DNA of 64,000 bases from contig MGUU01000024.1 of assembly GCA_001800135.1 (NCBI GenBank), forward strand, positions 31,844 through 95,843, read 5' to 3'. Numbering within the stretch: position 1 is the stretch's first letter; each line of letters opens with the position of its first letter. A model generated the notes under the pieces. The model was not told where the DNA came from. It worked only from the letters and a program-made list of their open reading frames with translations, and searched no databases. Shown one piece after another: positions 25,094 through 43,571 of the stretch. Source of the DNA: Elusimicrobia bacterium RIFCSPLOWO2_02_FULL_39_32. Lineage in GTDB: Bacteria; Elusimicrobiota; Elusimicrobia; 2-02-FULL-39-32. The translations under genes were made by a program, and so were the position numbers.

Positions 25094-25100
25094 TACCAAA

Positions 25101-25295: not shown

Positions 25296-28200
25296 ATGAA
25301 AAAAATGTTTTCCTTAGTTCTGGCAGCTTCTTTGCTCTTTAGCATGGCGGCCCCAAGTTTTGCCCAAGCTAAAATCTATGAAAGGCAAAGAGTTGACCAG
25401 CTGCGCGCTTTAAGCCAATTCACAAAAAATCCTCTTGCTTTAGTTGTGCAACACCTTGCGGAAAAATTGGTTCAGAATCCAAAACAGTTCCATTTATTTT
25501 ACGAACAATATATCCATGAATTAGAAACCATAAGTAAAAAAGAGAATGAGTTTAAAGTTCCATTTAAATCTCTTGCCAACAGATTTCTTTTCGCAACCCC
25601 GATTTTTAGCGTACGAGATGAAAAAATTTATGTTTTAGCCGCAATCAGGGGAAAACATTTTCAAACCAATCTGGCGCTGATATTTTCTAAAGATGGGAAC
25701 TTTGAGTCTAAGGTAGAAAAAGATTTTGAAATCAAAAAATTACTTACAGAAAATGAATTCAAAGTAAATGAAAACTGGGAGCTTAAAGATATAAGAAGAG
25801 GACTATCCTTATGGCCTAACTTCCTTGTAGAGCCTCAGAAAGAGGGATCAAAATTAAATTTTAAACCGAATCAGCTTATCGCCGATCTTCATGCAAAGAG
25901 CCCTTTTAAAAAACAAGACAGGATAAAGAAAAAAAGTTTTGAACCTTGGGTAAAAGCAGCATCCATTCTTTTAGTTTTAAACCTCACTACTCTTTTAACT
26001 CAGGGCTGCGTTTCAGTAATAACGGAACAATCTTCCATGTCTGTAGCTTCTTTTCCTTTTATGAATCTTTATTTTACGGCGATTGCGTTAATCTTATTGA
26101 ATCTATACAGTCTGATCACTAAACATCAAAATTATTTTCCAGCTTTTGTTTTTTACCCCTATTTTTCAGTAAAGAAAGTACGGTTGCCAGATTGGCTATT
26201 TCTATCCAATTTAATACCCGGCAAAGGGAACGAGCCAGAGGGCAAATCAGCCCAACTAAACGAGATTCGCGCTTCTGATGGAGAATCGGAGTTAGAACCG
26301 GCTCCCCAAACAAAAATAAATACAAAACATATCACAGATGGATTTAATAAAGTTCGGCTGATGGATGTTACAGGAGTTGAAAGGCTGGGAGTTATGGGGG
26401 ATGTGCAAGCAAATTATTTGCAGATGTTAAATGCCCTTGAAAAATCCGGATTTATTGACAGCAAAGGAGATTGGATTGCAGGTTCAGCAGTTCTTATCTT
26501 TGATGGAGACTTAATAGACGGCGGGCCAAATCCATGGGAGGTATTACAGTTTGTTTATAGTCTTCAAAACAAGGCGAGCGCTCAAGGAGGAAAAGTCATT
26601 GCAGTGATGGGCAATCATGAATATATGTTTTTAAACAGCGTTGAAGGAAGAGATCGCTACGCGCGAGAGTTGATTTGGACCCATTGGTTGAGTGATGACA
26701 ATGCCATGACCGGGCTCAATACTTTGAAAAAATTGCTTGGCAGAGAACATTTAGATTCAAACTGGGAAAAAGATAGCCATGCTGAGTTAGGGTATGCGGT
26801 TCAAAATAGAGAAGAACTTTTAAGAGAAATTCATGAACGGTATCCGGAATTGAATAACATTCTAAGATGGATGCAGCATTCCATGCCTTATGCGGTGCGA
26901 ATCAATGAAAATGTTTTGGCAGCGCATGCAGCTCCAGATTTTTATGCCAGGACATTTGAAGAGATCGCTTCTAGCGCCAGAGGAGAACTAATGACTATAC
27001 AGGATAGGGAATGGGTCAGTAATTCTCAACGCGTAAGAGAGTGGATGAAAAGGTTGGGATTTGAATATTTTGTTTATGGTCATACCTGCCAAACTCCAAT
27101 TGGTGTAGGGAAAAATGGAGGCATTCAAGGCAAAGTCAGTCAAATCATGCCTAAAATTTACAATATAAATACAACTCCTCGTCAGGCAGCAGAGGGAGGG
27201 GCTGCGGCTGTTCTAGAATTTTTATTTGACAGAAACTTAGCGCATACTGTTAAAGTGACCTATGGGGAGAACGAGTTTGGCTTAGAAGATGAAATTTTTG
27301 AACATTACTCAGTTAAAGTTTATCGCGCTTTTATGGAGGCTGCGGAAAAAATTGGGGCTAAGGGATTACTTGACTTTATTACCAAGAACATTAATCACAA
27401 AAATATGGTTAGACAATCTTCAGAAGGTCAAGTCTATAAAATTGAGGGCTTAGAGGATTATGAACTTCACCTCCCACCAGATATTAAATTTGATGATTTT
27501 AAACCTGTACAGGATCCTTTTCCAAAGAGTAATTTTGGTCAGGCGGTTGCTCAGTTGGGCAGTGTGACTATTCATAAGAGATTATTCGGAGTTCCCTATA
27601 GTGTATCTTCCCTTTCATTTGAAGAGAGTCCAACTTTAGATTCCCTATATGAAAAGCATCTTGAGATTGCCGCAGGAATGGCTCAAAGCGCTTATGACAA
27701 CTTAGCCATAGACTTAAAAAATATTCAGGATGCTGGTTATACGCTTGATTTAACAAATTCAAATAATATTTTTATTGATCCAGAACATTCAAGATTTCAA
27801 CCGCATCAACTGATTTTAGAAAAAGACGATTCATTGACTCATGCTTCAAGGTTGGCGGCTTGTCTCCTCAATCATGAGTTTGCGGCAGAAAAATATAATG
27901 GAAAGGACCCTCGCATATTTTATTGGCGAAGATTAATCCTTGAAAAATCTTTAATCGCAGCTCAAACTAGTGGACTCATATTTTCAAATGAGGATTATCA
28001 GAATCATGCATTATTTAATTTTGATTCTGAAATGGAGTTAGCTTTTGAATGGGCCGGCTTAAAAGGAGAATGGCCAAAAGTACAAAGTAGGATGATGGAA
28101 AAAGTCGAGGTTCAGAAAATTTTTTCAGATTATCCATCTACTTTACCCAAAAAGGGATTGGTTTTGTCTAGCAGACAGAGAGCAGGCTTAAGAGGTTTTG

Positions 28201-31200
28201 AAGAGATTTTTTACAGCGCTCTTTTAGTTGGTGGAATAGGAGAAATCTGGAATCATCTATTTTGGGCAGCTCCCACGATTGGTTATTTAATCGGTTCTGT
28301 TATCAGCCTGCTCCTCTTTATGAAAACACACAAAAAACCAATTTATTTAACCTCTGAAGGCGTTCTCACTCACGCACCTCCTTTAGGAATGGATGAAGAA
28401 GCAGCTCAACTAAGAGCAAAAAAAATTCTTTTTTTAATAGCAGTCACTCTACGATCCATTTATCTTTTAACTCTTTATCTATCTCCCTTTGGAAATATCA
28501 TTGACCTGATCCTTGCAACCATTGCAGCTATTGTTGCGCATGGGTTTATTTATAACAGCAAACTAGCTCCAAGATATTATTGGCCTTTAGCAATGGCTTC
28601 TCCAACTAAGCGAACCGAATTTAAATCAGAACAAGATAGAGAACGTTCAGAAATTGCTGCGCGTTCCATTAAACATGGTTCATGGAATGAACTCTCTATT
28701 AAATTATCCGTTCTTTATAAAGCCATGACACAATTAGATGAGCCAGATCGTTTAAGTTTAGAAACAGGAGATCATCTTCAAGGGCTTAGGGATCGTTTAG
28801 ACCTTTATGCTGAACGAGTCAGCCTTCAATTTCAAGATCATGAACTGCTTGAGTATAGAGAAGTTTTAGAAATTTTAATCGGTTTTTTAAAGAACGAAAT
28901 TGGACCGCGTCTTAATAATAAAGCTTTGATCAGCCTTTCAAACCATTCTACTCTTCAAGTTTATCACACCCGTTCCATTGAAATTATAGAGGATTTAATT
29001 TCTTTTATTGATGGAAATATAGAGGAACGGAAAACAACATTTGGAATTAAGGAAGTAATTGAGGAAGCGTTCGAGAATGTATTTAATGAATCATTTAGGG
29101 AAAGATATGCGAAAAGAGGGAATGAAATTACTTTGGAATTTGAAAGTTTTGAAAATAACCTTATTGAAAGTGCTGGGGACAGAAGAAAAATTCTAAATGT
29201 TTTTAGAACCTTATTTATGAACACAAGGCAGGTATGGCAGGAGAGATTACAAGCTGAAGCTAAAGACAATGTTCCGCCGCCTTTATCCTTAGAGTTGAGC
29301 GTTAAATTAAGATGGGTTGGAGATAAACCTATTCTTGAAATAATAGATAATGCAGGAGGATTTCAGAATGACGGGCTCTTGGATGTCCCAGAGAGTCAAG
29401 AACCAGATCGGCAAAAGATGTTTTTCTTAAATGTTTCAGAACGTAAAGGAGGATCTGGGTTAGGTTTAGCAGAAGTCTGGCATCTCATAAAACTTCACAG
29501 CATTAAAGATCAGCCTGCATGGATTCATGCCAGCAATCTTTCAGATCACAAAAGCAGAAAAAAAGGAGCTAAATTTACTATTTTTCTGCCAGAACTTATT
29601 GTCAAAACTGAAAGTAAATCAGAGGATACACCAGATGATCCAAACATAAAGATACTTAATAAACATAATTGGATTTTGTCTAAAGCTCGAAGGGAATTAG
29701 GACTCAAGCTTGCTGGACGCGGCGGAGGTTATTTTAGATTTTTTAAGGAGAAGGGACTGCTGCGAGAGTTAAAGAAAAAGATCATTGAAAGATTAATTGA
29801 ACACCATTGGAATTTTATTAAAACAGCTCAAAGTTTAGGAATTAACGAAATAACATTAAGAAATTTTAGAAAAGAGCTTAAAATCAAAACTTCTAGAAAA
29901 ATAAAGAATTCTGCTGCTAAAGTCAGATCAGAAAACAATCCAATTATCTTTGAATCTTCAATGATTTCAGATGAGGAATTATTGAGTAGAAAACCTTCAT
30001 TAAAACCTACAGTTAAGAAAAAGAATCAATTTATCCAAGGGCTAGATATTTTTGCAGATATGGTTTTAGCTGACATGAGAAGAAATGGCGTAACCCCTGA
30101 AGATTTTATTAAAGAGGCGGAAAAATATGCGTTAGTTCGTATGGAGATTTTATCTAGGCTTAACCGCAAGGATAGAAAATTCTTTGCGCAATATACAGAT
30201 AATAAAGAGCTGGAACTTATTTTTAAGGCTATGGAAACAGCTGAAACCTATTTGGGAAACTCTTATAAAAATTATTTTGTTGGAATTATAAAAGACTATT
30301 TTGAAAAAGGTTCTTCATTTATTTTTGAAGATTTTTGCAGATTAGACCTTTGGTTTAAACAGAATGATGAATGGTATAAAAATCTTTTTGACATTCCAAT
30401 GGATTATAGACCCAGAGAAAATGATATTGGCGCTCTATTTGAAGAACTTACAGGTTTTAGTTTGGAATCCATTCATGACAGGGATGGGGTACTTTCTATC
30501 CCCTATCTTTATTATGCCATGCAGGTAAGAAAGTCAGTTAATCCTGAACATAAACCACTAGTTGCGGTATATGGCGGAGCAGGCGCTGATATTTCAACAT
30601 TTTTATTATCCACAGATGCTTCTACAGGTTATTTTGTTACGCAAAATCAAGTAGATGCCGAACAACTTAAAAGTATGATGGAACAATGGGATTCAATAAC
30701 ATTTGATGACGATTATGCTAAAGATAAAAGGCTTTATGGTTTTGGAAATGGCGGAACTCTTGATAAAAGAAAGGGCGCAATTTATAAAGCGATAGTCCAA
30801 GAACTAAAAACAATTGGAGTTAGAAAAGAATCTGTAAGAATTGAAAATAAGGATGGTCATACAAAAATTATTTTAGACTGGGTTTACCCGGGGACCAATC
30901 AGCCTAGAACTTATTCAATTACTTATATAAAGCAGCGGTTGCAGAAGATTGGCAGCCCTGAAACAACTGACCCTTTGCTTAATTCTGCGCTTGAAAAAGG
31001 CATTGATATCTACTATCAAAAAGCTGTACAGGATACAAATAACTTATGGGGTCAATTCTTGCCTAGGGTTGCAAAAGCAATTAGAGTGGGAGGCGCTTCC
31101 ATTACAGATGATTACCAATCCATAAGCGGTATTCACAACCCTGAACCGTTTCTTAATACAGAGTCACATCATTTTGTTTCACTTAAACAGAATTCCTCTA

Positions 31201-34200
31201 AAAAAATATTCGATTGGTGGAAAAAAATAATTCCTTCAAAATCTAACTACGGTTGGGACGTAACGATCAGAATAAAAAAAGAACAACCTCAACAACAACT
31301 TATTACTGCTGTCGCAAAAGCCAAAGATAGAACAAGTGGCGTTAAAGCAGAGGACCTGCCTTTAGTGGCATTGGCGGATTTGGTGGCAACAGATATGGTC
31401 AGGGCTCATATCCCTCCAGAAAAATTTGCGGAAAAAGCAGAAGAATATACGATTGCAAGAATTTATGCGCTTTCTAAAATGGATCCGAAATGGTTAGAAG
31501 AAGCTCGAGATTTTACAATAACTAAAAATTTAAAATTAATCTATACGTTACTTCAGACTGCAACTATAAACTGGGGGGCTGAACCCCAAGTTCAGCTTGC
31601 AGGCTTGATAAAAGCTTATTTTAAAAGTAAAGATTTTAAAGCTCTGCTTCCTCAATTTAAGAAAGAATACGATCATGTCCCATCTAATTTTTCTCAGTGG
31701 TTAAATAAAAATAAGAAAATAGTTCTTTCAAAAAGATTTAAGAAAGGTGAATTATCTAAAATTGTCAGCCGCATTACAGGGTTTAACCCAGAAATTATTA
31801 AAGACCGCACCTCAGTTCTTTTACTTCCCTTTGTTCATTACGCAATGTCAGTTTGTGAGATTGTGAACCCGGATCATAAAGATTTAGTGGGACTCTATGG
31901 CGGAGCAGGCGCTGATATTTCTTCCTTCCTGCTTTCAACAGACGCAGGCACAGGGTATTTTGTTACAAACAATAGCGTGGATGTCCATAAATTACAATCC
32001 TATTTAAGGGAATGGGATTCTAAAACAGTCGAGTCTGATTATACTGACCAGGAGTACACTTACAAAAAACGTTTGAGGGGTTTTGGAGAGGGCGCTTTTT
32101 TACAAAACAGTCCTGAAAACATTTATTGGGCAATTGCAGCTGAACTTAAAAGCATGGGAGTAGAACTGAATGCCATTGAGGTTGAACTAGATCAAGGAGA
32201 TACAAAATTAAGTTTCAACTGGGCACATCCGGTTACTAATAAAAATCGTAAATATACAATTTTTTATATTAATTCTAATGTTGAAAGTATTGGCAATGGA
32301 ACAGGGGACAATAATCTTTTAAATAAAATTTTAGATTCAGGCATTGATTTTTATTACGAAAAAGCAGGGATGAACATTCATAAAAGTTGGGGGAAATTTC
32401 TTCCCCGCATTGCAGAAGCTATTAAATTAGATGGAATGGTTATTATTTGCGATTTTGACGGAGATGAAAGACCAATAGACTCAATGCCGCATTTACAAAA
32501 ATTAGGCTCAAAGTTTACTAGTTGGGGAGAATCCCTTTCCATGCGCTGGTGGCGCATGTTTATTCCTTCTCATTCCGGTTATGGATGGGAAGTTAAAATT
32601 AGAAAAAAAATAAGAAATTCCATTGCGATACAATTTGATACAACTGAATGGGATAGCGAACTATTAGAGTTTTACAAGCTGGGAGAAATAGAAAAATTGC
32701 AGAAAATTGTATTAGAAGAATCTGGTCTAAGGCGGATGGGGCAGGCCATGAAAGCGTTTGAATATTTTCTTCAAGAAGATTTAAGCACTGATTTTGGCAA
32801 AACTTTATTTTCGAGCATTCATGAAATTAACAGTAAAAAACCTTTAGCAATTTCTCAATCCCTTGTTTCAGTTTTGGAAGATGTGTTAAGGCGCGGGAAA
32901 CTGAGCGACATCAATTCTGAACAGGTGATAAAATTATTGATGTGGATTATGATGCAACAGCCGCATTTGATTAGCGAATCCATTCGGGAAACATTAGAAA
33001 TTCTGCTGGAAAGAAAAAATCTCAGTTCTCTTGAATTTAACGCGATTGAGAATCTTATTAGCTTAGCAATAGCCAAAAAACGACCGGATAGAATCTCATC
33101 CTTGTTCGTTTTTGCTGCGGTGAACATTCTCAATACTGACAATATTTTTTGGGATCGTCCTAGCAAATGGTTTAAAAAAAGTAGGAGGGACAGCCTTTTT
33201 TATTCTTCCGCATGCGATATTTTAAAAACCATTGCAAAACATAGGCCAGAGCTAATTTTTGATCCAATGATTGTTAGAGCTTTAGAAAGAGTTTTTTCAT
33301 ATGATGAGCTTGAACCTTATGTGGTTTCAGCCGCAGCCCAGGCGATTGAAGCTATTTTCCAGATCCATCCAGATTTTATTAATGCCAATACTCTTTCTGT
33401 ATTGAATAGTTTCATTCATACTGCGAAAAGAAAGAAATTAGAAAGTTATGCAACCCGCCATATTAATCATGCTATTTTAGAAATTATTAAAAAAAGAGGC
33501 AATTTATTATTTAATCCCGATTTATTGTCCACACAAGAAGAAATATTGCGCACTAATGGGCATGAAGATGAAGTCTATAAAAGCGCTGCTGAGTTTATTG
33601 ATATCATTGCTGAAAATCGCTCTTCCTCTATTCAGGTATCAACAGTTGAATCTTTAATTCAATCTTTACAGAGAAAACAGTATGTAGAGGCTCATTTTGT
33701 TGGTAAAGACGAATCAACAACTAATTATGGCATGGTATTAGGCGCTTTGATGCGGATTTTAAAATCTCGTCCTGATCTTGTGGAATTAGAAAGATTAGTT
33801 GAAGCAGTTTGTAAATTTCTAAAGAATTCCGAACGCCTCTATCCCGTTGGCTTTAGCATACTTAAACAGATCACCTTAAAAGCGCCGGCAATTTTGCAAT
33901 CAAACCACATAAAAATATTAGAAAAGCACGCTAGAAGACTTTTAGGTAAAGAAACGGCTCATTACAGTCAATTTCTTAAACCCATTGCTGATTGTTTTAA
34001 AGAAGTTTCAAGAGCCAGAGCTGATCTTATCCAATTGTCCACTGTATCGCTTTTATTCAACCTTTTAAAAATTAAGGACCTTCGTAAAGAAACTTATATG
34101 GCAGTCTTAGACACTTTTAAAAATTTAATTCAGAAAAGACCAGAATTTAATAAAGAAATATTTTTTGCATTAGAGTACTTAATGATGCAAAAAAGGCACG

Positions 34201-37200
34201 AAGCAGAAGAATACCGCTATGCCGCTCGCTTAATGAAAAAAATAATAAAAGCCGAACCAAAATTAGAAAATGGGAGTGTGTTATACCCTATTATAAAAAT
34301 ATTGCCGGAAAAAATATTAGGCCATCCCTTTCATCATTGGCGTATCTATACTGACAATTATTTTAGAGCTTGGATGGAAAAAGTTCAGTCAAATAGTGAG
34401 GCTTATTCGGTTTCTAACGCGGTTTATGAACTTTTAACGTTTTCTAACCTTCGTCTTTCCAAACAAAACATTAAAAAAGGTTTAGATTTGATTTTAATTT
34501 TGAGAAGCGTTTTATCTGTACCTCATCCAGATAACTTAATGTATGGACCCAATGTGACTGCCATCAATATCTTGCATCAAGATGAAGAGTACAGAAAAGA
34601 GAGAATGGAAACGGTTCAGATTTTGGCGCGCGTTAAACCAGAACAGATCAAAACATTCAAAGGATTTGAACAAAAAGAGAATGCTTTAGAAGCGATCAGA
34701 CAAAGCAAAGGTCCAACAACTATCTATATTCATGCGCATGGGGATGGGGAGGGATTTAGTTTGGATAGTAAAGAAGTAAGTTCTCAAAATACTGCCAATG
34801 ACCAGAAACGCCCTATTGATGAACCTTATTCTATCAGTCACCGCGAGTTAGTAGATACTCTTCTAGAAAGAGGAAATTTAAGTGAAGTTAAGATCATATT
34901 TGATTGTTGTTATCCACGCGATCTATCCAGGACTTTTATTAGTTATCTAACTGAAAGGTGTGTGTCCGATCCTGATATAAGAGCCGGATCTCCTTTTATT
35001 ATTACTGCAAATGGTGAAGGCAGATTTATTTATACTGGGATATTCGCAGAAGGCTTAAGAAGCGTGCAAAAAGCAGGCCGTTCACTATATGTGGATGATA
35101 TTTTTAAAGCTGAAGATGTTATGTTTGAATATGAAGATCCTATTATTTTGTTGCCGATTGGCAGCTCATTGTTTGAATATATGCAATCAAAAATACCAAA
35201 AATTCTTTATTCACCGCTCTTAAATATAGGCGCTATTTTTGGAAAAAAGCACAAAGATACAGCGCATTATTGGGAGTGGGTGTATCAGACACCTGTTCTA
35301 TCTATTTTTTCAAATGCGATCGCGCGTATGGTTGGGAAGAAATTAGGAGTCAAAAGAATTGAGGATCATTTAGGAGAAGCCCCTTACTCTAAAACAATCA
35401 GCCTCATTAGCTCTCTAGTTTTGATCAGTAGTTTTTTAACAGGTCACAATCTCATCATTATCGCCGCATCTGTTTTATGGTCTTTAGCCAGCGGCTATGT
35501 TTTTAGCGGAGCTCACAAAGGAAGGGAAAGCTTTAATTTGCAGGTGGTTGGTTCAATTTTAGCAGGAGTGACAATCGCTCCTGCTATTTTATTTTCTTTG
35601 ACTCTTAATTGGCTTGGCTTAGAATTACCATTCGTGGTTAGCGCAATAACTTATGTATTTCTCCTCGTGCTCGGGATGTTCTGGAATATTCATCTCCATA
35701 AGGAATATAACGAAAATATTGATGAAATATCTCAATGGCTGAAAAAAAATAGTCCTCATTCATTTAAGCGTTTCCTGCCATCTCATCTTAGTCCTGCTAT
35801 AATTTTTTCTGAACCCAGTAGATTAAAACAAGTTGAATGGGTTAAGAAATTGCATTTAGAAGAAAATAGAAATTTGATTAATCCTATGGAATTAGCTCTG
35901 GCTGATTTAATGGACTATCTAGATGCTGAGAGTTTTTTTGAAGAGTACTGGTGGTGGAAAAATTATTTAAGCGTTCCTGAAAGTTACCAATTTTCTGAAG
36001 ATGATTTGACTAGAGCGTTTAATTCATACTTAACAGAATTAGATGAAGCCGATCAATTAATTAAAATTGATCTCAATGGAACTGAACTGGACGACTTTAA
36101 ACTTTTTCTTCTTTTAAATCAGGTAGAAATTTTAAAGTCAAGAATAAAATTAAGATGGAGAGAATTTGGTTTATCTCACATCAATCGAGTTGTTTATCAA
36201 AGGACAGGAAGAGTTTTTCCTATTGACGTAATGATTTCCAATCTAAATGAATTAAACCCATATAGAGATCCGTCAGAGTCTAATTCAATTCCTGAAGAAT
36301 TAAATTCCTTATTTGCTAAGCATGAAGATTTTCCACATTTTGTGGAAAGATCCATGATTTCATATTTCGGTCCTTTATCTTCACTCCAAGAAAGATTGCA
36401 AATAGAACTTAAGCAAAGGATCCTTGCGGATCCTGCTCTTATTCATAAATTGGTTCGCTTAAGCTCTGAACAGTTTTTTATGTTATCGGATCCAATCATG
36501 GATTGGATTTTGAATATTAATAGTGAGCGGGTGGAGATCACTACGGGTCATAGAGTTCTTCAAGATGGTTTTGAAACAGAGCAGGTAACCTATGAAGGAA
36601 CACCTTATCATAAAATCAGGGAACTCCTTCCTGCTTTAAACCTTAGCTCATCCGATACTCTTTATGATTTAGGTTCTGGTTACGGCCGTTTGCCGCTTTA
36701 TACAGCAATTACCACAAAGGTAGGAAAAGTAAAAGGAATTGAAATATCTCCTGAAAGAGTCGCTGAAAGCGATCAAGTAAAAGATCAGTTGGGATTAGAG
36801 AATGTTGAATTTGTTCAAGTAAATATCAGAGATTACGATTTTAGCGATGGAACTGTATTTTATTTATTTAACCCTTTTAACGATCAAACTTTAGAAATTG
36901 TGGTTAATAAATTAAAAGAGATGGCTCAGAAAAAAAAGATACGGATTATTTCTTGGGGAAGATCTACATCTTATTTTAACCAGCAAGATTGGCTAAAACT
37001 TGTTGCCACAGTTGGCTCTGGCCCGTGGCCAATGGTGCTTTATGAATCCATGTTTCATAGCGCGAATCCAGAAGTGAATGTATTAGAATCAAAAATTTTA
37101 TCCCAAAAGATCATAAAAGGAATTTTACATTTAGAAAGCTTTTTGGATGATCCGGACCCAGACGTGCGGCGCATGGCAAACGATGTAGCTCAAAGAATTC

Positions 37201-40200
37201 AAGCTGCTTTCATGCTTAAGGAAGATACTCCTTCACCAAGTTCAATATTGGAAGATGAAGAATTGAAGACTGCGGAACAGAGCCTAAAATCACATGATGA
37301 AGAAGCGAGATGCCGAGCTGTGCTTTCACTAAAAAAACATTACCTTGCGATGATTGCAGGGGGAAAAATTCCAGATCTTACTTTGATTGAAGAAAGACTT
37401 TCTGATCCTGATTTTTCTGTTCGAAGAACAGCCGCAATCGCTTTAGGTTACCTCTATTACATGCTAAAGAAAGAAATTTCCCAATTAGAAAAATATTTAG
37501 AAGATGATGAATGGCGCCGCATCATAGGCGTGATTGCATTAGGGGAGATATTTGCTTCTAATATTAGAGAAGGAAAAGTGTTGGAGGAAGACTTTCAAAA
37601 ATATCTTCTTTGGAAGGCGAATAGCCTTCCTTATCAAGAAGAGTTAGTAACTGACTACTTAGAATCAGAAGAACCAAAAAGTTTTATTGATGCTCTTAAA
37701 AGAAAAGCGGAAAAGATTATTCGCGAAGGTTTTAACTATAACCATTCACAAAATTTATGGCTGGCTTTTCTTGGCATTCGATTTAATGGCATTCATGTGA
37801 GCTGGAAGGATTATAGTGAAAGGATGGAAGATGTGATTGAGCTGGATCAAGAGTTACCCGGCTCTTTTCGCGCGCTCTTCTCTAAAACTAAAGGGTTAAA
37901 ACCAATTGAAATCAGCCATAAAGAATCAAAACAGATTGACGCGAGTCAAGTTAATACGCAGATTTTAGATGAACATCTTCAAGAGTTATTAGAAATAAAA
38001 GAACGGATAGATAGCCTTCATTGGCTAAAGGATTTTCAGGGAGACAAAGATTTTAATTTGCGCAATCTCTATTTTATATTTAAGCGCGAGCAAGCGATTG
38101 ACCGCGGTGAAATTAAAAGAGCTGGGAGGTACAGGGTTCTTTACCCTTCTGAAAAAAAGTTGGCGGCGGAATTAAAGACCGACCTTAAACTTTTATATAA
38201 AGTTTTGTTCCAGCTCGCGCATAAAAAAATAGGGAATGAAGCCCTAAGGGATAAATGCGTAAGTCTTATGAGGGATTTAACTTTATCAGAAGCGCTATCA
38301 AACAGGGATCTGGCAAGTGAAATGATGTCGTCTAATATTGAAACCAGAATCATTGCAATTAAGAATTTTTATGAAGATTCTATCCATCACTTGCCGAACC
38401 ATGCGGTCGGTCTAAATGCAAAACAAATTAAATCTTTAGATAAAAGTATTAAAGAACTTTCAAAAGCAGTTTATGCTGAAATAAAAAAAGTTATTTACTT
38501 TGAAACAACTAGCAATGATACCTACCGTTTGATTCCGCAAGGGTTCCTAAGTTTATTTAGAGGGCGATCTGGAATTATTGATTGTTCATTTGATAGAGAG
38601 CGCGGATTCCCGCATACTCGCGCCATGCACGAAGATACCCTTTACTATTTTGTCTATAAAGGCCAAGAACTAAAAGGGTATGTTGGCTTAATGATTGGAA
38701 TAAGAGATGATGGTGAAAAAGTCTTAACTATTGATACGATTAACTCTCCTTCTCTTAACAATGAAGAGATTCTAATAAATCTTTTTAACGAACTTCACAA
38801 GGTCGCGCAAGAATTAGGGGCCATTGGAATTGCGCTGCCACAAAACATTGAAAATGCTCAATACTTTAATTTTGAAAATAAAGACGTGATTCCTAAAATG
38901 AGTTTGTATAAGAACGGTAAAAAAATTAAGTTAAAGCCAGTCCATGACGAAAGCTGGAGCGTTTTTACGGAAAAGTTTGGGGAAGACCGCTACAACAGCA
39001 TGGAAGCAGGAGATTTTATACTGTTAGATTTAGCAGACTTAGCAAACAGAGAAACCAATGCTGTAACGCATCTGAGAATAAAAGAAGAAATGAGTTCCTT
39101 TCTTTCCAATAGTTCTAAAAATAAAGAGGAGATTGAGAACTATCTCACTGAATTCAAACGGGATGGCGAACCATTATTTAAAAGATCAGATATTAAAAGA
39201 ATACTGGAGTTATCTTGGATAAAGTTGGCAAAAAGAGCGGCATTATTGGAATTTTTGATTTTGTTTCAAATTGATAATCGGTTTGTGTTTAATGGCAATC
39301 AAATAGCCAGGATCATGGATAATGCAAAGAGTCCGGAAGTTATTATTAGAACCATTAGGTTCCTTGTTCAAGAAAGTTTTTCAGACGGAGCTCATATAAG
39401 CTCAATTGTAAGTCATCCAAGGAATTTAAAGCAAATTAAGAGATTTATAAATTATTTAGTTCAAGCAGCCATTGAAGATAAATCTCATATGGCTCAAATT
39501 ATGAGTAGTTCCATGAATTTAAAAGAGGTTAAGAAATTCATTGCTCGTCTTTACAAATTAGGGTTTACAAACAGTTCTCACCTGAGCCAAATTTTAGGAA
39601 GTTCAAAAGAGCTAACAACCATTAATGACTTTGTCACTTTTCTAAATGGGTTAGGGATTCTGGATAGCGCTCAAATTTCAAGAATTATCAGGAGAGAAAG
39701 ATATCTTGCCGGTATAAAAAAAGTTGTTGATACCCTTAAAGCTGAAGGAATTCTAGATAAGTTTCAGATCAGGTCTGTTGTGCGAAGCACGATCACCCCA
39801 GCCCACATTAAGCGTTTATTAAATCAAATTGAGAGAATGGGACTAAGTGAAATTGAAAGAAGGTATGGAAAAGATAATCAAGGTCAGTTGGAATTTTATA
39901 GCGCCATCTTTCCAGAAGAACTTTCAAAAATGTCCTTATCAATTCTCTACCTAGTTTTACCAAAAGCGATTAGAAATAATAAAAGAATACTCTGGACAAA
40001 ATTATCCTGCAGTTATAATGATGCAAAAATACTGACAGAAATGAATATAAATAATAGGGGAGAAATTCATGTTGCTAATTTAATATTTCCGTTTCAAGAT
40101 TATAAAGGATATGAAGGATTCACTCGCCTCATCAGTAAAATAAGAATTCAATCAAATACGCTTTTATCTAAATTAGATCCTGCTAAATATTTGTCTAGCG

Positions 40201-43200
40201 TTCCAGATCATATTCGCAAGGAGATGCACTGGTATTATTCCCCCATTCTTTATCTGCTTCAAGACTCTATTCATGGTGAAGAAGATTTTACGGATTCAAG
40301 CATCTTAGGCGCAGGCGATAAAAATGAAGAAACTATAGTTTTAGGCAGGATGAAAGAAGTATTGGGAGAGAATGATTATCATGCTTTAATGGAGCTTCTT
40401 CGCAATCCAAAGCGAACTGCTCAAGAAAGAGAAAAGTACAAAGGACTAATTAGATTGAGCAGAGTAAGGATAGGGTTAGAGACAACTAAGAGATTAAAAG
40501 CCGGGATTATTCCAGAGGTTGAAGATTGGTGGATGAAACATTTTCCTAAAACTCCAAAACCTGTTTATCGGCTTATGATAGCCCCTCTTTTTACAGAGGG
40601 ATCTTGGTTAAATTTAGCTCCGCTTTTAGCAGGAGAACTGTTATTACAGGCGGGGCTTGGCATTGTTCCAACCGGTGTTTTAACATTTTTGCTCAATATT
40701 CTTGTGGGAGCGCGATTTATTGCTTTGCATCCTGCTGGCTCACGCGCTATTCCTATTTTTATCGTTGTCATGAATAGTATCGCACTTCTATATTTTTATC
40801 CTTTTGTTCAGTGGCATTCCAAAGAGATCGTGCTTTTTAATGCTTATTTAGGAGGTATTTTCACCCATATACTTTTGAATGCGTTTCAAATGATAATGGA
40901 TTGGGCTTCTGACGATAACTATAGGAATTATTTATCTAATGAACTGGATAAGCATAAAAGAGATATTGCAATTGGCAGGCAGAGATTTAGATCAGAGTCA
41001 GCTATAAGCAGCGGTCTAAGAGAACCAAATCAGACCCATGCGTTGACCCAGCCAGAGATGCTCTCTCAATTCCTAAGCCGTTATCCTCAAATGGAAAGAG
41101 CATACAGCAGAAGTTTTATTGAAAGGCATTGGCATGCTTTTCAATCTTTGCATTTAATTGCGGGAAAATATGCGGATTCTATATTTTTTGTTGCATTGCC
41201 GGCGTTAAGCCGCTTGGTAACCAAAAATAATATCAAGGAGGTAGGAGATCATCTAATCCTACTTGGGGAAAGAGCCGGAGAAGATTATGAAACTGTTTAC
41301 TATACTTTAGCTGCTCTAAAAGAAATTATTACATTACAAAACCTAAATTCTATATCAGAAGAGACTCTTTTTCTAAATAAATCAGCAAAAGGGAATGCCG
41401 GTCCAATTTTAAGTTTTGCGCTTTATTCGCTTAGAGAAATAATTACACCAAACAATTTTTCAACTGTTGGCGCTGAACTAATCGCCCTGCATCGTTTAGG
41501 AACTAAGAATTCTGGCGCATATTTTTGGATTTCGTTCCTTGCAGTAAGCAGGATTACAACTCCAAAAAATTTGAGATCTGTTTGCCTTGATCTTTTTCTT
41601 TTAGACAAATCTGCCGGAGAGGATGCTCGAATTCTATTTGAAACAGGATTTTTATCAATTAGAGATATGATTACCGCGGAAAATTTAATGAAAATCGGAC
41701 TTGATCTAATCATATTATTAAGAGCCGCAAAACAATATAAAAGATTTCTATTTAATAATATCATCCCAGCGCTAAAGGTTGAATATGGAGAAAGATGGAA
41801 CAAATTAAACTGGGAAGATATTAAGAATCGTATTCTAAAGACATTAGAGGATATTCACAATGGCGTACTAAATACAGCTATTTTTAAAAAGAATACGCAT
41901 GATGTCATTCAAAGAGAGGATGTTTTAACTTATCAGAGGAATAAACCAATTGATATTACAGATCCTATGGTACGACAGCTTTTAAAAAACAAAATAGAAG
42001 ATTCAGCGTATAGAACTGCTGTTCTCAACCAGTTTTATCTCTCTGAAGCATGTGAATATTTTGATTCTCTTGTTAAAGAAGACATGTGGAATAGTTTAGG
42101 AGCTTGGAAATTTTTAAAAGAGATTTATCGAAGATTTGGTTCTCTTAAAGGGAAAACAGTCATAGATTTGTATGCAGGCCCAGGGGTTGGAGTCGAGCAA
42201 TTAATTCGTTTAGGCAGTGTTAATGCAATAGGCATTGAAACAGATCCAAGATTTGTAGAATTTGCCAAGCAATTTGGAATTCCTATTATACATGGCAGCT
42301 TATTAAAAGAAGAACTTAAAACAGCTGTTGAAGAATTGATTGGGAATAGGAAAGTCTCTTTAACTTTTTCTTATGGTCTTTTAAATAATATATCGAATAG
42401 GAAAAAAAGATTAAAGATTTTGCGCTCTATTTCTTCTCTTACTCCAGTAGGCTCTTTTAGCATTCATGGCACAAAGCATCGCATCCCAACTACTAATGAG
42501 GAGTTTAAAAGCGCAGGCTTTAGGATCATTGAAATCAATAGAGAACGGACATTTGTAGTTTTGTTTAAAGAAAATGAACCAGAAGATTGGGATGCTATTG
42601 GCTTTAATCCTTTATTTGATGATACTGAGAAACCAGAAGATGACAAAGAAGATAGAAACAGCGATAAAACTGATGAATCCTCTGTTAATGCTATTCTGAG
42701 CGCAACCATTTCAGCTCTACCTATTTTTCTTGAGCCTATAACCTCTTCTTCTTTTTATTTTGGGCAGAACTCATGGGATAGATTGACTTTAGAAACCCAG
42801 AAGTCATTGAGAAGGTCATTTGGTACAGAGCCATCATCTAATGTTTCTATTTCTCAATGGCTTGGCAGCAGATTGGCGATAGGAGCAAGAATCAATAAAA
42901 ATCCGCTCGCCATCCACTTGCTTAGTGAAAAGATAAATTTTGCGCGTTCACTATTAGAATGGAAACAATTAGATATAAACGAAATAATAGGAAACGCATT
43001 TACATTATTTAGAAAACCCAACTGGGCATTCGTTAAAACTCCTAACATGATATTTCAGATGGGAGGAACTCTATTTAGGGAAAATAGTTCTGCTTCAAAT
43101 GTTCAAAGCAGCATTGAGATGCTGGCTAGGAATTTGAATGAAAAGGCTCCAGAGGTTATCAATCAAAAAGATTCAATAAAAATTACAGTAAGCTATCATG

Positions 43201-43571
43201 AACTTGAAAAATTTACGACCACTATTAAAAAATTAACTAATCTCTTTGAAGAAAAGCAAATTGAACTTTTAGTGGTCGCAGAGAGTCCTTCCATAAAAGA
43301 GCAGGAGATAAAAGGTAAGTTAATTCAAAGAGGAATTGAAAATTTAAAGTTTAGAGTTCTAATACAGCCTAAGAATAATGGCAAGTTTGATTTTCAAGAA
43401 TTAATTGACGCCTATGGATTGTTCAACACCTCTTTAATTCTCTTAAGCGGAGCAAATGAGTGGAATTTAGACCATGTTCTTAAAGAGATTATTCGGATAG
43501 AGACTGAATCAGTTACAAATATCTTAAATATGGAGATAGAAAAGATTAAACTCATCACCTATTCTGCATAG
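25296..43571 (+). CDS. Giant (6091 aa) multidomain membrane protein with signal peptide
   Basis: Single 18276-bp ORF; Sec-type signal; metallophosphoesterase, kinase-like, His kinase, Fis HTH, duplicated Rossmann-like, HEAT, caspase-like, SAM-MTase, GNAT-like and repeat regions plus three multi-TM modules. Confidence 0.9.
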   Translation: MKKMFSLVLAASLLFSMAAPSFAQAKIYERQRVDQLRALSQFTKNPLALVVQHLAEKLVQNPKQFHLFYEQYIHELETISKKENEFKVPFKSLANRFLFATPIFSVRDEKIYVLAAIRGKHFQTNLALIFSKDGNFESKVEKDFEIKKLLTENEFKVNENWELKDIRRGLSLWPNFLVEPQKEGSKLNFKPNQLIADLHAKSPFKKQDRIKKKSFEPWVKAASILLVLNLTTLLTQGCVSVITEQSSMSVASFPFMNLYFTAIALILLNLYSLITKHQNYFPAFVFYPYFSVKKVRLPDWLFLSNLIPGKGNEPEGKSAQLNEIRASDGESELEPAPQTKINTKHITDGFNKVRLMDVTGVERLGVMGDVQANYLQMLNALEKSGFIDSKGDWIAGSAVLIFDGDLIDGGPNPWEVLQFVYSLQNKASAQGGKVIAVMGNHEYMFLNSVEGRDRYARELIWTHWLSDDNAMTGLNTLKKLLGREHLDSNWEKDSHAELGYAVQNREELLREIHERYPELNNILRWMQHSMPYAVRINENVLAAHAAPDFYARTFEEIASSARGELMTIQDREWVSNSQRVREWMKRLGFEYFVYGHTCQTPIGVGKNGGIQGKVSQIMPKIYNINTTPRQAAEGGAAAVLEFLFDRNLAHTVKVTYGENEFGLEDEIFEHYSVKVYRAFMEAAEKIGAKGLLDFITKNINHKNMVRQSSEGQVYKIEGLEDYELHLPPDIKFDDFKPVQDPFPKSNFGQAVAQLGSVTIHKRLFGVPYSVSSLSFEESPTLDSLYEKHLEIAAGMAQSAYDNLAIDLKNIQDAGYTLDLTNSNNIFIDPEHSRFQPHQLILEKDDSLTHASRLAACLLNHEFAAEKYNGKDPRIFYWRRLILEKSLIAAQTSGLIFSNEDYQNHALFNFDSEMELAFEWAGLKGEWPKVQSRMMEKVEVQKIFSDYPSTLPKKGLVLSSRQRAGLRGFEEIFYSALLVGGIGEIWNHLFWAAPTIGYLIGSVISLLLFMKTHKKPIYLTSEGVLTHAPPLGMDEEAAQLRAKKILFLIAVTLRSIYLLTLYLSPFGNIIDLILATIAAIVAHGFIYNSKLAPRYYWPLAMASPTKRTEFKSEQDRERSEIAARSIKHGSWNELSIKLSVLYKAMTQLDEPDRLSLETGDHLQGLRDRLDLYAERVSLQFQDHELLEYREVLEILIGFLKNEIGPRLNNKALISLSNHSTLQVYHTRSIEIIEDLISFIDGNIEERKTTFGIKEVIEEAFENVFNESFRERYAKRGNEITLEFESFENNLIESAGDRRKILNVFRTLFMNTRQVWQERLQAEAKDNVPPPLSLELSVKLRWVGDKPILEIIDNAGGFQNDGLLDVPESQEPDRQKMFFLNVSERKGGSGLGLAEVWHLIKLHSIKDQPAWIHASNLSDHKSRKKGAKFTIFLPELIVKTESKSEDTPDDPNIKILNKHNWILSKARRELGLKLAGRGGGYFRFFKEKGLLRELKKKIIERLIEHHWNFIKTAQSLGINEITLRNFRKELKIKTSRKIKNSAAKVRSENNPIIFESSMISDEELLSRKPSLKPTVKKKNQFIQGLDIFADMVLADMRRNGVTPEDFIKEAEKYALVRMEILSRLNRKDRKFFAQYTDNKELELIFKAMETAETYLGNSYKNYFVGIIKDYFEKGSSFIFEDFCRLDLWFKQNDEWYKNLFDIPMDYRPRENDIGALFEELTGFSLESIHDRDGVLSIPYLYYAMQVRKSVNPEHKPLVAVYGGAGADISTFLLSTDASTGYFVTQNQVDAEQLKSMMEQWDSITFDDDYAKDKRLYGFGNGGTLDKRKGAIYKAIVQELKTIGVRKESVRIENKDGHTKIILDWVYPGTNQPRTYSITYIKQRLQKIGSPETTDPLLNSALEKGIDIYYQKAVQDTNNLWGQFLPRVAKAIRVGGASITDDYQSISGIHNPEPFLNTESHHFVSLKQNSSKKIFDWWKKIIPSKSNYGWDVTIRIKKEQPQQQLITAVAKAKDRTSGVKAEDLPLVALADLVATDMVRAHIPPEKFAEKAEEYTIARIYALSKMDPKWLEEARDFTITKNLKLIYTLLQTATINWGAEPQVQLAGLIKAYFKSKDFKALLPQFKKEYDHVPSNFSQWLNKNKKIVLSKRFKKGELSKIVSRITGFNPEIIKDRTSVLLLPFVHYAMSVCEIVNPDHKDLVGLYGGAGADISSFLLSTDAGTGYFVTNNSVDVHKLQSYLREWDSKTVESDYTDQEYTYKKRLRGFGEGAFLQNSPENIYWAIAAELKSMGVELNAIEVELDQGDTKLSFNWAHPVTNKNRKYTIFYINSNVESIGNGTGDNNLLNKILDSGIDFYYEKAGMNIHKSWGKFLPRIAEAIKLDGMVIICDFDGDERPIDSMPHLQKLGSKFTSWGESLSMRWWRMFIPSHSGYGWEVKIRKKIRNSIAIQFDTTEWDSELLEFYKLGEIEKLQKIVLEESGLRRMGQAMKAFEYFLQEDLSTDFGKTLFSSIHEINSKKPLAISQSLVSVLEDVLRRGKLSDINSEQVIKLLMWIMMQQPHLISESIRETLEILLERKNLSSLEFNAIENLISLAIAKKRPDRISSLFVFAAVNILNTDNIFWDRPSKWFKKSRRDSLFYSSACDILKTIAKHRPELIFDPMIVRALERVFSYDELEPYVVSAAAQAIEAIFQIHPDFINANTLSVLNSFIHTAKRKKLESYATRHINHAILEIIKKRGNLLFNPDLLSTQEEILRTNGHEDEVYKSAAEFIDIIAENRSSSIQVSTVESLIQSLQRKQYVEAHFVGKDESTTNYGMVLGALMRILKSRPDLVELERLVEAVCKFLKNSERLYPVGFSILKQITLKAPAILQSNHIKILEKHARRLLGKETAHYSQFLKPIADCFKEVSRARADLIQLSTVSLLFNLLKIKDLRKETYMAVLDTFKNLIQKRPEFNKEIFFALEYLMMQKRHEAEEYRYAARLMKKIIKAEPKLENGSVLYPIIKILPEKILGHPFHHWRIYTDNYFRAWMEKVQSNSEAYSVSNAVYELLTFSNLRLSKQNIKKGLDLILILRSVLSVPHPDNLMYGPNVTAINILHQDEEYRKERMETVQILARVKPEQIKTFKGFEQKENALEAIRQSKGPTTIYIHAHGDGEGFSLDSKEVSSQNTANDQKRPIDEPYSISHRELVDTLLERGNLSEVKIIFDCCYPRDLSRTFISYLTERCVSDPDIRAGSPFIITANGEGRFIYTGIFAEGLRSVQKAGRSLYVDDIFKAEDVMFEYEDPIILLPIGSSLFEYMQSKIPKILYSPLLNIGAIFGKKHKDTAHYWEWVYQTPVLSIFSNAIARMVGKKLGVKRIEDHLGEAPYSKTISLISSLVLISSFLTGHNLIIIAASVLWSLASGYVFSGAHKGRESFNLQVVGSILAGVTIAPAILFSLTLNWLGLELPFVVSAITYVFLLVLGMFWNIHLHKEYNENIDEISQWLKKNSPHSFKRFLPSHLSPAIIFSEPSRLKQVEWVKKLHLEENRNLINPMELALADLMDYLDAESFFEEYWWWKNYLSVPESYQFSEDDLTRAFNSYLTELDEADQLIKIDLNGTELDDFKLFLLLNQVEILKSRIKLRWREFGLSHINRVVYQRTGRVFPIDVMISNLNELNPYRDPSESNSIPEELNSLFAKHEDFPHFVERSMISYFGPLSSLQERLQIELKQRILADPALIHKLVRLSSEQFFMLSDPIMDWILNINSERVEITTGHRVLQDGFETEQVTYEGTPYHKIRELLPALNLSSSDTLYDLGSGYGRLPLYTAITTKVGKVKGIEISPERVAESDQVKDQLGLENVEFVQVNIRDYDFSDGTVFYLFNPFNDQTLEIVVNKLKEMAQKKKIRIISWGRSTSYFNQQDWLKLVATVGSGPWPMVLYESMFHSANPEVNVLESKILSQKIIKGILHLESFLDDPDPDVRRMANDVAQRIQAAFMLKEDTPSPSSILEDEELKTAEQSLKSHDEEARCRAVLSLKKHYLAMIAGGKIPDLTLIEERLSDPDFSVRRTAAIALGYLYYMLKKEISQLEKYLEDDEWRRIIGVIALGEIFASNIREGKVLEEDFQKYLLWKANSLPYQEELVTDYLESEEPKSFIDALKRKAEKIIREGFNYNHSQNLWLAFLGIRFNGIHVSWKDYSERMEDVIELDQELPGSFRALFSKTKGLKPIEISHKESKQIDASQVNTQILDEHLQELLEIKERIDSLHWLKDFQGDKDFNLRNLYFIFKREQAIDRGEIKRAGRYRVLYPSEKKLAAELKTDLKLLYKVLFQLAHKKIGNEALRDKCVSLMRDLTLSEALSNRDLASEMMSSNIETRIIAIKNFYEDSIHHLPNHAVGLNAKQIKSLDKSIKELSKAVYAEIKKVIYFETTSNDTYRLIPQGFLSLFRGRSGIIDCSFDRERGFPHTRAMHEDTLYYFVYKGQELKGYVGLMIGIRDDGEKVLTIDTINSPSLNNEEILINLFNELHKVAQELGAIGIALPQNIENAQYFNFENKDVIPKMSLYKNGKKIKLKPVHDESWSVFTEKFGEDRYNSMEAGDFILLDLADLANRETNAVTHLRIKEEMSSFLSNSSKNKEEIENYLTEFKRDGEPLFKRSDIKRILELSWIKLAKRAALLEFLILFQIDNRFVFNGNQIARIMDNAKSPEVIIRTIRFLVQESFSDGAHISSIVSHPRNLKQIKRFINYLVQAAIEDKSHMAQIMSSSMNLKEVKKFIARLYKLGFTNSSHLSQILGSSKELTTINDFVTFLNGLGILDSAQISRIIRRERYLAGIKKVVDTLKAEGILDKFQIRSVVRSTITPAHIKRLLNQIERMGLSEIERRYGKDNQGQLEFYSAIFPEELSKMSLSILYLVLPKAIRNNKRILWTKLSCSYNDAKILTEMNINNRGEIHVANLIFPFQDYKGYEGFTRLISKIRIQSNTLLSKLDPAKYLSSVPDHIRKEMHWYYSPILYLLQDSIHGEEDFTDSSILGAGDKNEETIVLGRMKEVLGENDYHALMELLRNPKRTAQEREKYKGLIRLSRVRIGLETTKRLKAGIIPEVEDWWMKHFPKTPKPVYRLMIAPLFTEGSWLNLAPLLAGELLLQAGLGIVPTGVLTFLLNILVGARFIALHPAGSRAIPIFIVVMNSIALLYFYPFVQWHSKEIVLFNAYLGGIFTHILLNAFQMIMDWASDDNYRNYLSNELDKHKRDIAIGRQRFRSESAISSGLREPNQTHALTQPEMLSQFLSRYPQMERAYSRSFIERHWHAFQSLHLIAGKYADSIFFVALPALSRLVTKNNIKEVGDHLILLGERAGEDYETVYYTLAALKEIITLQNLNSISEETLFLNKSAKGNAGPILSFALYSLREIITPNNFSTVGAELIALHRLGTKNSGAYFWISFLAVSRITTPKNLRSVCLDLFLLDKSAGEDARILFETGFLSIRDMITAENLMKIGLDLIILLRAAKQYKRFLFNNIIPALKVEYGERWNKLNWEDIKNRILKTLEDIHNGVLNTAIFKKNTHDVIQREDVLTYQRNKPIDITDPMVRQLLKNKIEDSAYRTAVLNQFYLSEACEYFDSLVKEDMWNSLGAWKFLKEIYRRFGSLKGKTVIDLYAGPGVGVEQLIRLGSVNAIGIETDPRFVEFAKQFGIPIIHGSLLKEELKTAVEELIGNRKVSLTFSYGLLNNISNRKKRLKILRSISSLTPVGSFSIHGTKHRIPTTNEEFKSAGFRIIEINRERTFVVLFKENEPEDWDAIGFNPLFDDTEKPEDDKEDRNSDKTDESSVNAILSATISALPIFLEPITSSSFYFGQNSWDRLTLETQKSLRRSFGTEPSSNVSISQWLGSRLAIGARINKNPLAIHLLSEKINFARSLLEWKQLDINEIIGNAFTLFRKPNWAFVKTPNMIFQMGGTLFRENSSASNVQSSIEMLARNLNEKAPEVINQKDSIKITVSYHELEKFTTTIKKLTNLFEEKQIELLVVAESPSIKEQEIKGKLIQRGIENLKFRVLIQPKNNGKFDFQELIDAYGLFNTSLILLSGANEWNLDHVLKEIIRIETESVTNILNMEIEKIKLITYSA
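30036..32610 (+). repeat. Tandem duplication of a ~440-aa domain inside the giant gene
   Basis: YGGAGADIS at 30570 and 31896 (26 identical nt, 1326 bp apart); both copies end YGW(D/E)VxIRxK. Confidence 0.9.
39288..39842 (+). repeat. Six ~31-aa helical tandem repeats inside the giant protein
   Basis: Units start FNGNQ, FSDGAH, IEDKSH, FTNSSH, ILDSAQ, ILDKFQ. Confidence 0.8.

Follow-up and report, generated by a model that had tools for sequence, protein, structure and literature searches.

The window analyzed here is a stretch of 64,000 nucleotides (nt) from Elusimicrobia bacterium RIFCSPLOWO2_02_FULL_39_32 (GCA_001800135.1, MGUU01000024.1:31,844–95,843, forward strand) with a G+C content of 38.1%. 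Its plus strand carries a giant open reading frame (ORF) of 6,091 amino acids (aa; window 25296..43571), which we characterized by means of the ORF list, hydropathy, and Pfam. The encoded protein starts with a signal-like segment, and the hydropathy scan places hydrophobic clusters at residues ~221–274, 991–1086, 3366–3467, and 5115–5171. The subject of this analysis is an internal domain of the giant protein, residues 3050–3320 (34443..35255, plus strand, like all features of the giant protein given below). According to phmmer, alignment, and structural model, it comprises an N-terminal helix and a caspase-like α/β core, and it is almost certainly a homolog of clan CD, i.e., of the proteins with a caspase–hemoglobinase fold.

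Two motifs mark the domain. IYIHAHG starts at residue 3143 (nt 34722) and includes His3148-Gly3149 (34737..34742; His3148 codon 34737–34739), the predicted catalytic His directly after strand β3. IIFDCCY starts at residue 3200 (nt 34893) and includes Asp3203-Cys3204-Cys3205 (34902..34910; Cys3205 codon 34908–34910), with Cys3205 as the predicted nucleophile directly after β4. Both predictions draw on conservation, the alignment to Peptidase_C14, and the model. An earlier note on this DNA had placed the two motifs, each behind a hydrophobic strand, ahead of a membrane module and had taken them for the HG...DxC dyad of a caspase-like protease; its numbering was correct, and the hydrophobic runs in question (TTIYIH and VKIIF) form strands in the model. 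The range proposed there (34540–35170) coincides with the core (residues 3085–3289; 34548..35162), over which the model can be superposed on experimental structures of clan CD (Foldseek, VIA-align). The motifs lie ~160 residues ahead of the hydrophobic cluster at residues ~3366–3467 (35391..35696; hydropathy), for which 3 or 4 spans are predicted. On the other side, residues 2809–3049 (33720..34442) align together with the domain in six relatives (P0007, P0009, P0041, P0005, P0022, and P0053) and probably form a HEAT-like helical repeat; a weak Pfam match to the HEAT-like SYMPK_PTA1_N was found at residues 2922–2985. A strand-HG...strand-DxC pattern, written post hoc, occurred once in the giant protein and, for two versions of the pattern, in 0 of 2,000 and 1 of 2,000 residue shuffles. 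As the pattern is rare in shuffles, the whole protein holds only 18 Cys and 6 HG dipeptides per 6,091 residues, and 134 relatives keep His, Gly, and Cys nearly invariant, a chance match is unlikely. The giant protein is thus very poor in Cys, and two of the 18 are adjacent at the predicted active site.

To define the family, residues 3050–3320 were searched with phmmer against 1.84 billion representative sequences (cut-off E ≤ 1e-3). Domain matches were obtained in 134 representative proteins, 38 of them at E ≤ 1e-10 and a single one at E ≤ 1e-30. The latter is the sole near relative of the whole giant protein, a 5,070-aa protein from an Elusimicrobia metagenome-assembled genome (MAG) with 89% identity over residues 3000–3500. 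One local round with a hidden Markov model (HMM) on the matched proteins yielded 137 segments aligned with the query. His3148 was kept in 136/137 segments, Gly3149 in 134/137, and Cys3205 in 138/138, while other conserved positions were G3123 (134/135), K3127 (124/136), E3184 (123/138), E3273 (116/129), and D3281 (115/125). The column of H3094 contains H in 107/131 and N in 18/131 segments, and Asp3203 is D in 87/138. A smaller MAFFT alignment of 30 rows (A1; the query, 20 segments, and 9 short whole proteins) showed invariant columns at G3123, H3148, G3149, E3184, C3205, and P3233. HG and C were also intact in all 13 matches (12 distinct copies) at 11 loci of Elusimicrobiota genomes; three of these matches have SCHSG, as in metacaspases. 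Identity among family members across bacteria and archaea amounts to 25–35%. Since His, Gly, and Cys would not stay invariant at this level of identity in a mere scaffold, the domain is probably an active peptidase or transpeptidase.

The family is largely invisible to sequence libraries. Pfam gave no match to the domain, even at E ≤ 10, whether the domain itself, the giant protein, or a 300-aa piece around the motifs was searched, and NCBIfam returned nothing for the query domain. A phmmer search of the PDB revealed chance matches only (E ≥ 0.47), and the A1 profile matched only designed ‘Pizza’ propellers in the PDB, through one short strand (E ≥ 0.026). Among 58 full-length relatives, 50 had no Pfam family at all at E ≤ 0.01; in their homologous region, only C13 (P0006 and P0061), C11 (P0029), and C80 (P0071) appeared, all below the cut-off. 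For the 30 members of A1, matches at E ≤ 1 comprised C13 (seven members), C25 (three), C80 and C14 (two each), Raptor_N and C11 (one each), and otherwise unrelated families, i.e., one antitoxin family (two members) and 13 singletons. Peptidase_C13 (PF01650), with a best E of 1e-4 among its seven members, reached 16.3 and 16.5 bits in two full-length relatives and thus stayed below its gathering cut-off of 22.8; the query had no C13 score. Peptidase_C14 (PF00656) had a best E of 0.016, likewise below its gathering cut-off (21.4 bits), and no match to the query at E ≤ 10. Peptidase_C80 (PF11713) matched its two members weakly (best E 5.8e-5) and the query not at all, while the full-length relative P0071 scored 21.2 bits (cut-off 23.8), and CHAT (PF12770) gave no Pfam match for the query or for A1 members. 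The sole NCBIfam family was ‘caspase, EACC1-associated type’, which matched 7 of the 30 A1 members weakly (best E 4.5e-4). A feature search in the ESM Atlas assigned 26 of 30 named matches to Peptidase_C14 clusters (score 0.93), which serves as a lead only. When the family HMM was run on the giant protein with filters off (E ≤ 100), only the known copy was found, without further or degenerate copies.

Profile–profile comparison identified the nearest known family. As C14 reference, we aligned 12 canonical PF00656 domains, all encoded by genomes of this phylum, and compared them with A1 using hhalign. The match had a probability of 96.9% (E 1.7e-10, 161 columns) with HG and C in register: F-x-G-H-G of the family falls on F-S-G-H-G of C14, and I-D-S-C-Y-S on L-D-S-C-F-S-G, so that Cys3205 aligns with the Cys and Asp3203 with the Asp of the C14 motif ‘DSCFSG’. 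The reversed C14 alignment reached 16.2% and 20 column shuffles ≤ 1.1%. As a second candidate, a relationship with CHAT was considered and rejected, as A1 scored 0.4% against 7 CHAT domains of the phylum over 10 columns that cover the HG strand only; C14 scored 85.6% against the same seven domains. C13 was matched in 1 of 151 genomes of the phylum, inside a C14 locus, and no C13 comparison set could be drawn from the phylum. Of the two families compared, C14 is therefore the nearest at the sequence level, yet the domain lies beyond the reach of PF00656. Judged from these profiles, common ancestry with Peptidase_C14 is detectable, with the catalytic motifs aligned. The source genome encodes two canonical Peptidase_C14 genes elsewhere (G000:C25:82592–83296 and G000:C25:51252–51953; 62.2 and 49.6 bits; frames of 481 and 467 aa). 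Searched with PF00656 at E ≤ 1e-8, the genome yielded these two genes and not the domain of the giant protein, which is thus not the organism’s only caspase relative.

The predicted fold is in line with this assignment. AlphaFold was run on the 271-aa query with A1 as alignment (protein numbering = query + 3049), and the resulting model reached a mean predicted local distance difference test (pLDDT) of 87.2 and a predicted template modeling score (pTM) of 0.87. It superseded a single-sequence prediction that was unusable (pLDDT 39.1). In query numbering, the model consists of helix 7–25, strand 39–44, helix 52–61, strand 69–73, helix 75–87, strand 92–97, short strands 99–101, 104–106, and 130–132, helix 133–143, strand 149–154, helix 158–172, strand 185–188, helices 200–208 and 218–227, strand 234–238, and helix 241–250. 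His99 of the query is modeled directly after strand 92–97 (protein 3141–3146) and Cys156 directly after strand 149–154 (3198–3203). The modeled core order is β1-α1-β2-α2-β3-(three short strands)-α3-β4-α4-β5-α5-β6. Clan CD is described as a six-stranded sheet with five helices in the order β1-α1-β2-α2-β3-α3-β4-α4-β5-α5-β6, a small three-stranded sheet between β3 and α3, and dyad residues placed at the C-terminal end of β3 (His) and of β4 (Cys) (PMC4357240). Both the element order of the model and its placement of His before Cys fit this description (PMC4357240), and the modeled topology would bring His3148 and Cys3205 into juxtaposition.

The model was then compared with 48,161 PDB representatives by VIA-align, of which the 50 best rows were examined. 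An asparaginyl ligase (asparaginyl endopeptidase, AEP) proenzyme and legumain ranked highest (Z 14.9; root-mean-square deviation of 2.7–2.8 Å over 172–174 residues), followed by metacaspase-4 and MALT1 (14.1), PIGK (13.8), and metacaspase-9, Raptor, and caspase-8, -9, and -3 (13.0–13.4, Raptor 13.4). Further matches were SAVED-CHAT (12.0), c-FLIP (11.3), gingipains (9.5–9.7), C11 enzymes (8.5–9.5), the type VI secretion system (T6SS) effector complex Hcp3-Tce1 (8.3), separase (8.2), and the CHAT-bearing anti-sigma factor DdvA (8.2). Judged by title, the top 29 rows comprise 28 clan CD enzymes or pseudo-enzyme relatives and an unnamed Geobacter protein, and the first clearly unrelated fold is a response regulator at Z 8.0. 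Foldseek listed 40 rows, 39 of them clan CD, with SAVED-CHAT 8tl0 on rank 1 (best E 4.8e-4). No C80 cysteine protease domain (CPD) structure was among the 50 VIA-align or 40 Foldseek rows listed, which does not exclude that family. The C14 profile match with its motifs in register, the confident model, and the near-invariant His, Gly, and Cys together speak for membership in clan CD and for His3148 and Cys3205 as its probable catalytic pair. The caspase-like fold proposed in the earlier note thus held up, and the predicted topology agrees with its dyad.

The presence of Raptor and c-FLIP among the structural matches raises the question of a non-catalytic caspase-fold module, a pseudo-protease scaffold that would serve binding only. 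Pseudo-enzymes of the clan (pseudo-orthocaspases) have lost the dyad residues (PMC6426788), whereas the present family kept His, Gly, and Cys across bacteria and archaea, so that we regard such a role as very improbable. A second alternative follows from the top of the structural ranking. In PIGK, too, a membrane helix comes after the caspase-like domain, and a transpeptidase or ligase of the kind known from C13, such as glycosylphosphatidylinositol (GPI) transamidase (PIGK/Gpi8) or asparaginyl peptide ligases, would join a cleaved protein to another acceptor at the membrane. C13 enzymes provide the best structural matches (AEP ligase proenzyme, legumain, and PIGK), and C13 is the commonest sub-threshold Pfam family. 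However, the Z-scores of C13, metacaspases, MALT1, and caspases lie within less than 2 of each other, so that the structural ranking gives C13 no clear lead; at the profile level, significance was reached with C14 alone, and sequence cannot tell ligation from hydrolysis. We consider ligation improbable, if slightly less so than a mere binding role.

Among known families, only C14 (caspases, metacaspases, and orthocaspases) yields a significant profile match, and the model has the same fold and strand order. An Asp two residues before the Cys is shared with the Arg/Lys-specific C14B enzymes as described in PMC4357240, and some relatives have SCHSG. Unlike C14, the family has Y-P/S-x-D-F/L after the Cys instead of HSG or RG, an extra conserved N-terminal helix, and no long linker after the Cys, and PF00656 gives the query no score. 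C13 (legumain, asparaginyl endopeptidases/ligases, and PIGK) leads the structural ranking at Z 14.9, 14.9, and 13.8, within 1–2 Z of C14; however, all Pfam scores stay below the cut-off, an LSAM-type prodomain at the C-terminus was not seen, and the Asp before the Cys would point to basic rather than Asn specificity. With CHAT (SAVED-CHAT, Csx29) and separase (C50), the domain shares a layout in which a long helical-repeat region leads to a domain of caspase fold close to the unit’s end, but profile similarity to CHAT does not extend beyond the HG strand, and there is no SAVED, tetratricopeptide repeat (TPR), or CRISPR context. The C80 CPDs of MARTX and large clostridial toxins would do the same job if the giant protein processes itself, namely as internal clan CD domains that cut their own large protein (PMC4357240; PMC3482391). 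In contrast to the present family, which lacks a toxin context, CPDs have a seven-stranded sheet and three major helices and are switched on by host inositol hexakisphosphate (InsP6); a free-living bacterium would not be expected to use such a switch. The giant proteins of Omnitrophota likewise carry peptidase domains in very long proteins with multiple membrane segments (bioRxiv 10.1101/2023.11.21.568195). Some members of the present family also come from Omnitrophota. The clans of the C39 and S8 domains differ from clan CD, which does not appear among the domains in the part of that preprint covered here, and the word ‘caspase’ has 0 occurrences in the preprint.

The domain represents a new clan CD family without a Pfam or NCBIfam model. 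It is distinct from C14, C13, and CHAT in that scores stay below the C14 and C13 cut-offs and the profile comparison separates it from CHAT, and it is distinguished by the C-Y-S/P-x-D-F/L motif, the conserved N-terminal helix, and the lack of a long linker after the Cys. In Elusimicrobiota, a further distinctive trait is the cassette with a membrane cluster after the domain within giant proteins. No description of the family was found in the literature searched (supplements excluded). As for specificity, the Asp that stands two positions ahead of the catalytic Cys in C14B enzymes is the counterpart of Asp3203, which suggests a preference for Arg or Lys at P1; in TbMCA2, this Asp is Asp211 of the proposed S1 pocket, and C14B enzymes cleave after basic residues (PMC4357240). 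Caspase-type activation by cleavage after the Cys is unlikely, since the model has no long linker there and helix 158–172 starts two residues after the Cys.

Where they have a name, relatives of the domain are called ‘hypothetical protein’, apart from one ‘tetratricopeptide repeat protein’, and originate from Endomicrobiales/Elusimicrobia, Candidatus Omnitrophota, ‘archaeon’, and Nanoarchaeota MAGs, so that the family ranges over Elusimicrobiota, Omnitrophota, and DPANN-type archaea. Eighteen of the 134 representative matches exceed 2,000 aa, and 56 have a transmembrane- or signal-like segment before the domain. A scan of 201 genomes of the phylum at E ≤ 1e-5 revealed matches in 19 genomes, with 15 among the 63 genomes of one family and up to 6 matches per genome; they lie in open frames of 1,037–9,162 aa, most of which exceed 1,800 aa. 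The source genome (2.52 Mb, 97% complete) has one copy of the domain, and no second copy was found. In 11 of the 12 distinct Elusimicrobiota copies (11 loci), a transmembrane-like cluster begins 50–115 residues after the domain, and in the relative P0024, the linker and membrane cluster after the domain are shared with the giant protein. One 4,620-aa frame of another Elusimicrobiota genome (L011; G087:C16:102466–112465, + frame 0) contains three copies, all with HG and C, of which copies 2 and 3 are each followed by a transmembrane-like cluster. Upstream, closer relatives also share 100–240 residues, and HEAT repeats precede the domain in P0030 and P0040.

Within the giant protein, Pfam further identified a Metallophos domain (calcineurin-like phosphoesterase) at residues 363–598, an S-adenosylmethionine (SAM)-dependent methyltransferase at residues 3784–3852, and HEAT repeats at residues 3995–4081. 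As a putative built-in cysteine peptidase, the domain could cut the giant protein, in cis or between copies, into separate modules. Such self-processing, for which architecture and precedent speak, is the reading we favor, at a probability that falls somewhat short of even. The domain is internal to a protein with multiple enzymes and multiple membrane clusters, its matches in the phylum lie in long frames, and in the 4,620-aa frame three copies have an intact dyad, two of them followed by a membrane cluster. As for precedent, internal caspase-like domains of polymorphic toxins have been read as releasing peptidases, with arrays standing for multiple cleavage events (PMC3482391); the CPDs in MARTX and clostridial toxins cleave the very proteins that carry them (PMC4357240); and the peptidase domains (C39 and S8) of giant Omnitrophota proteins with multiple transmembrane segments were proposed to cut those proteins (bioRxiv 10.1101/2023.11.21.568195). 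The domain would lie on the cytoplasmic face, since the Lys/Arg-rich flanks and middle loop of the following cluster fit four spans (positive-inside) and a SAM-dependent methyltransferase follows downstream.

Several observations weigh against self-processing. The domain lies ≤ 120 residues from the C-terminus in 90 of the 134 matches, mostly proteins of ~1,000 aa, so that nothing downstream is left to release in these cases, and a transmembrane-like segment follows the domain in only 14/134. The cassette loci are the best-scoring matches of the phylum scan rather than a random sample, the hydropathy scan is crude, and copy 1 of the 4,620-aa frame lies away from any membrane cluster. As the cluster after the domain has 3 or 4 spans, the compartment is uncertain. 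Further reservations concern the peptidase reading as a whole: Foldseek E-values were modest, with TM values of 0.34–0.47, named members are all ‘hypothetical’ or repeat-named, the query falls outside all Pfam and NCBIfam models, and sequence searches of the PDB found no relative. Finally, no member of the family has a shown activity, cleavage product, or cleavage site, a point that would also suit a non-catalytic module.

The C-terminal position in 90/134 matches, combined with the transmembrane or signal segment before the domain in 56/134, corresponds to a layout of the separase/CHAT type and fits at least equally well a membrane-tethered clan CD protease that acts in trans, with the helical repeat as substrate or regulator arm, comparable to separase and the TPR-/SAVED-CHAT proteases, and the membrane cluster as an anchor only. 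The upstream residues common to closer relatives, the HEAT repeats in P0030 and P0040, and the structural matches to SAVED-CHAT, separase, and DdvA are consistent with such an enzyme. However, the family is not close to CHAT by profile (0.4% compared to 96.9% for C14), three copies with an intact dyad in one polypeptide are explained more easily by processing of that polypeptide, and no candidate gene for a substrate or partner was found among the neighbors in the window, which are housekeeping genes and an M6 peptidase. Action in trans is thus possible but clearly on the doubtful side.

The earlier note had also suggested a toxic effector as an option besides autoprocessing, which found no support. 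C-terminal caspase-like domains of polymorphic toxins have been read as toxins delivered to another cell (PMC3482391), the T6SS effector complex Hcp3-Tce1 is among the structural matches, and the family is present in lineages reported as host-dependent or predatory (Omnitrophota). In contrast, the domain of the giant protein is internal, ~2,800 residues away from the C-terminus, is flanked by membrane clusters, and shares its polypeptide with cofactor-dependent methyltransferases. Moreover, neither on the giant protein nor on 12 neighboring ORFs did Pfam reveal a domain of the toxin, RHS, filamentous-haemagglutinin, secretion-system, or immunity type. We therefore consider a delivered toxin highly unlikely.

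If self-processing of the giant protein is followed further, the cassette of helical arm, caspase-fold protease, and membrane cluster, with up to 3 per protein, would mark the points at which a precursor is cut into separately anchored enzymes, an idea that we put forward tentatively. With similar reserve, the domain might be the founding example of a family whose members, built into membrane-threaded ‘polyproteins’ of Elusimicrobiota and Omnitrophota with small genomes, act as their processing enzymes; DPANN archaea would have versions with a single unit.

Regarding the surroundings of the giant gene, the divergent gene just upstream (21830–25099, minus strand) codes for 1,089 aa with an M6 (immune inhibitor A/InhA-like) metallopeptidase domain and an fn3 domain, and further neighbors in the window are an HTH_3 gene and the housekeeping genes tig, clpP, clpX, lon, and an ATP-binding cassette (ABC) transporter. 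Within the giant protein, pairwise comparison revealed a tandem internal duplication of ~400 residues (residues ~1560–2460, window 29973–32675; 39% identity, E 2e-93), both units of which carry a YGGAGADIS-FLLSTDA-TGYFV motif and match no Pfam family. Residues ~1290–1470 (window ~29150–29700) contain IIDNAGGF...GGSGLGL and resemble a histidine-kinase-type ATPase by eye only, with no tool match. They are followed at residues 1491–1547 by weak helix-turn-helix (HTH) matches (HTH_Tnp_1, E 0.03; HTH_8, E 0.073); a DNA-binding module within a membrane-threaded giant protein would need to be released in order to act. A second methyltransferase-like stretch with VIDLYAGPGVG (SAM-binding motif I by eye) was noted at residues ~5540–5780 (window ~41900–42600), where Pfam found nothing at E ≤ 0.1. 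In a sister genome of the same genus (G112), the gene occupies two frames (L033:1393–4263 and L033:2–1396, both on the minus strand): a 956-aa ORF with 90% identity to residues 1–908 of the giant protein shares 4 bases with the beginning of the 5,070-aa ORF. As similarity stops at residue 908, this looks like a frameshift, either real or due to an assembly error, and not like a designed split.

Among the caspase relatives of prokaryotes, the family closes a gap, as it comprises at least 134 representative clusters from lineages for which metagenomes are the main source of knowledge. Being unseen by Pfam, NCBIfam, and sequence searches of the PDB, it merits a profile model of its own. If the domain is an ordinary trans-acting protease, the gain would lie in a better annotation of several hundred ‘hypothetical’ proteins. 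Its importance would grow if self-processing of a membrane-threaded polyprotein proved true. Whether bacterial giant proteins stay whole or are cut is a question raised for Omnitrophota (bioRxiv 10.1101/2023.11.21.568195), and a conserved caspase-fold domain with an intact dyad ahead of membrane clusters offers a concrete handle on the processing of such proteins. Should the polyprotein reading be correct, it would answer, for this class, whether giant proteins of bacteria work whole or in pieces.

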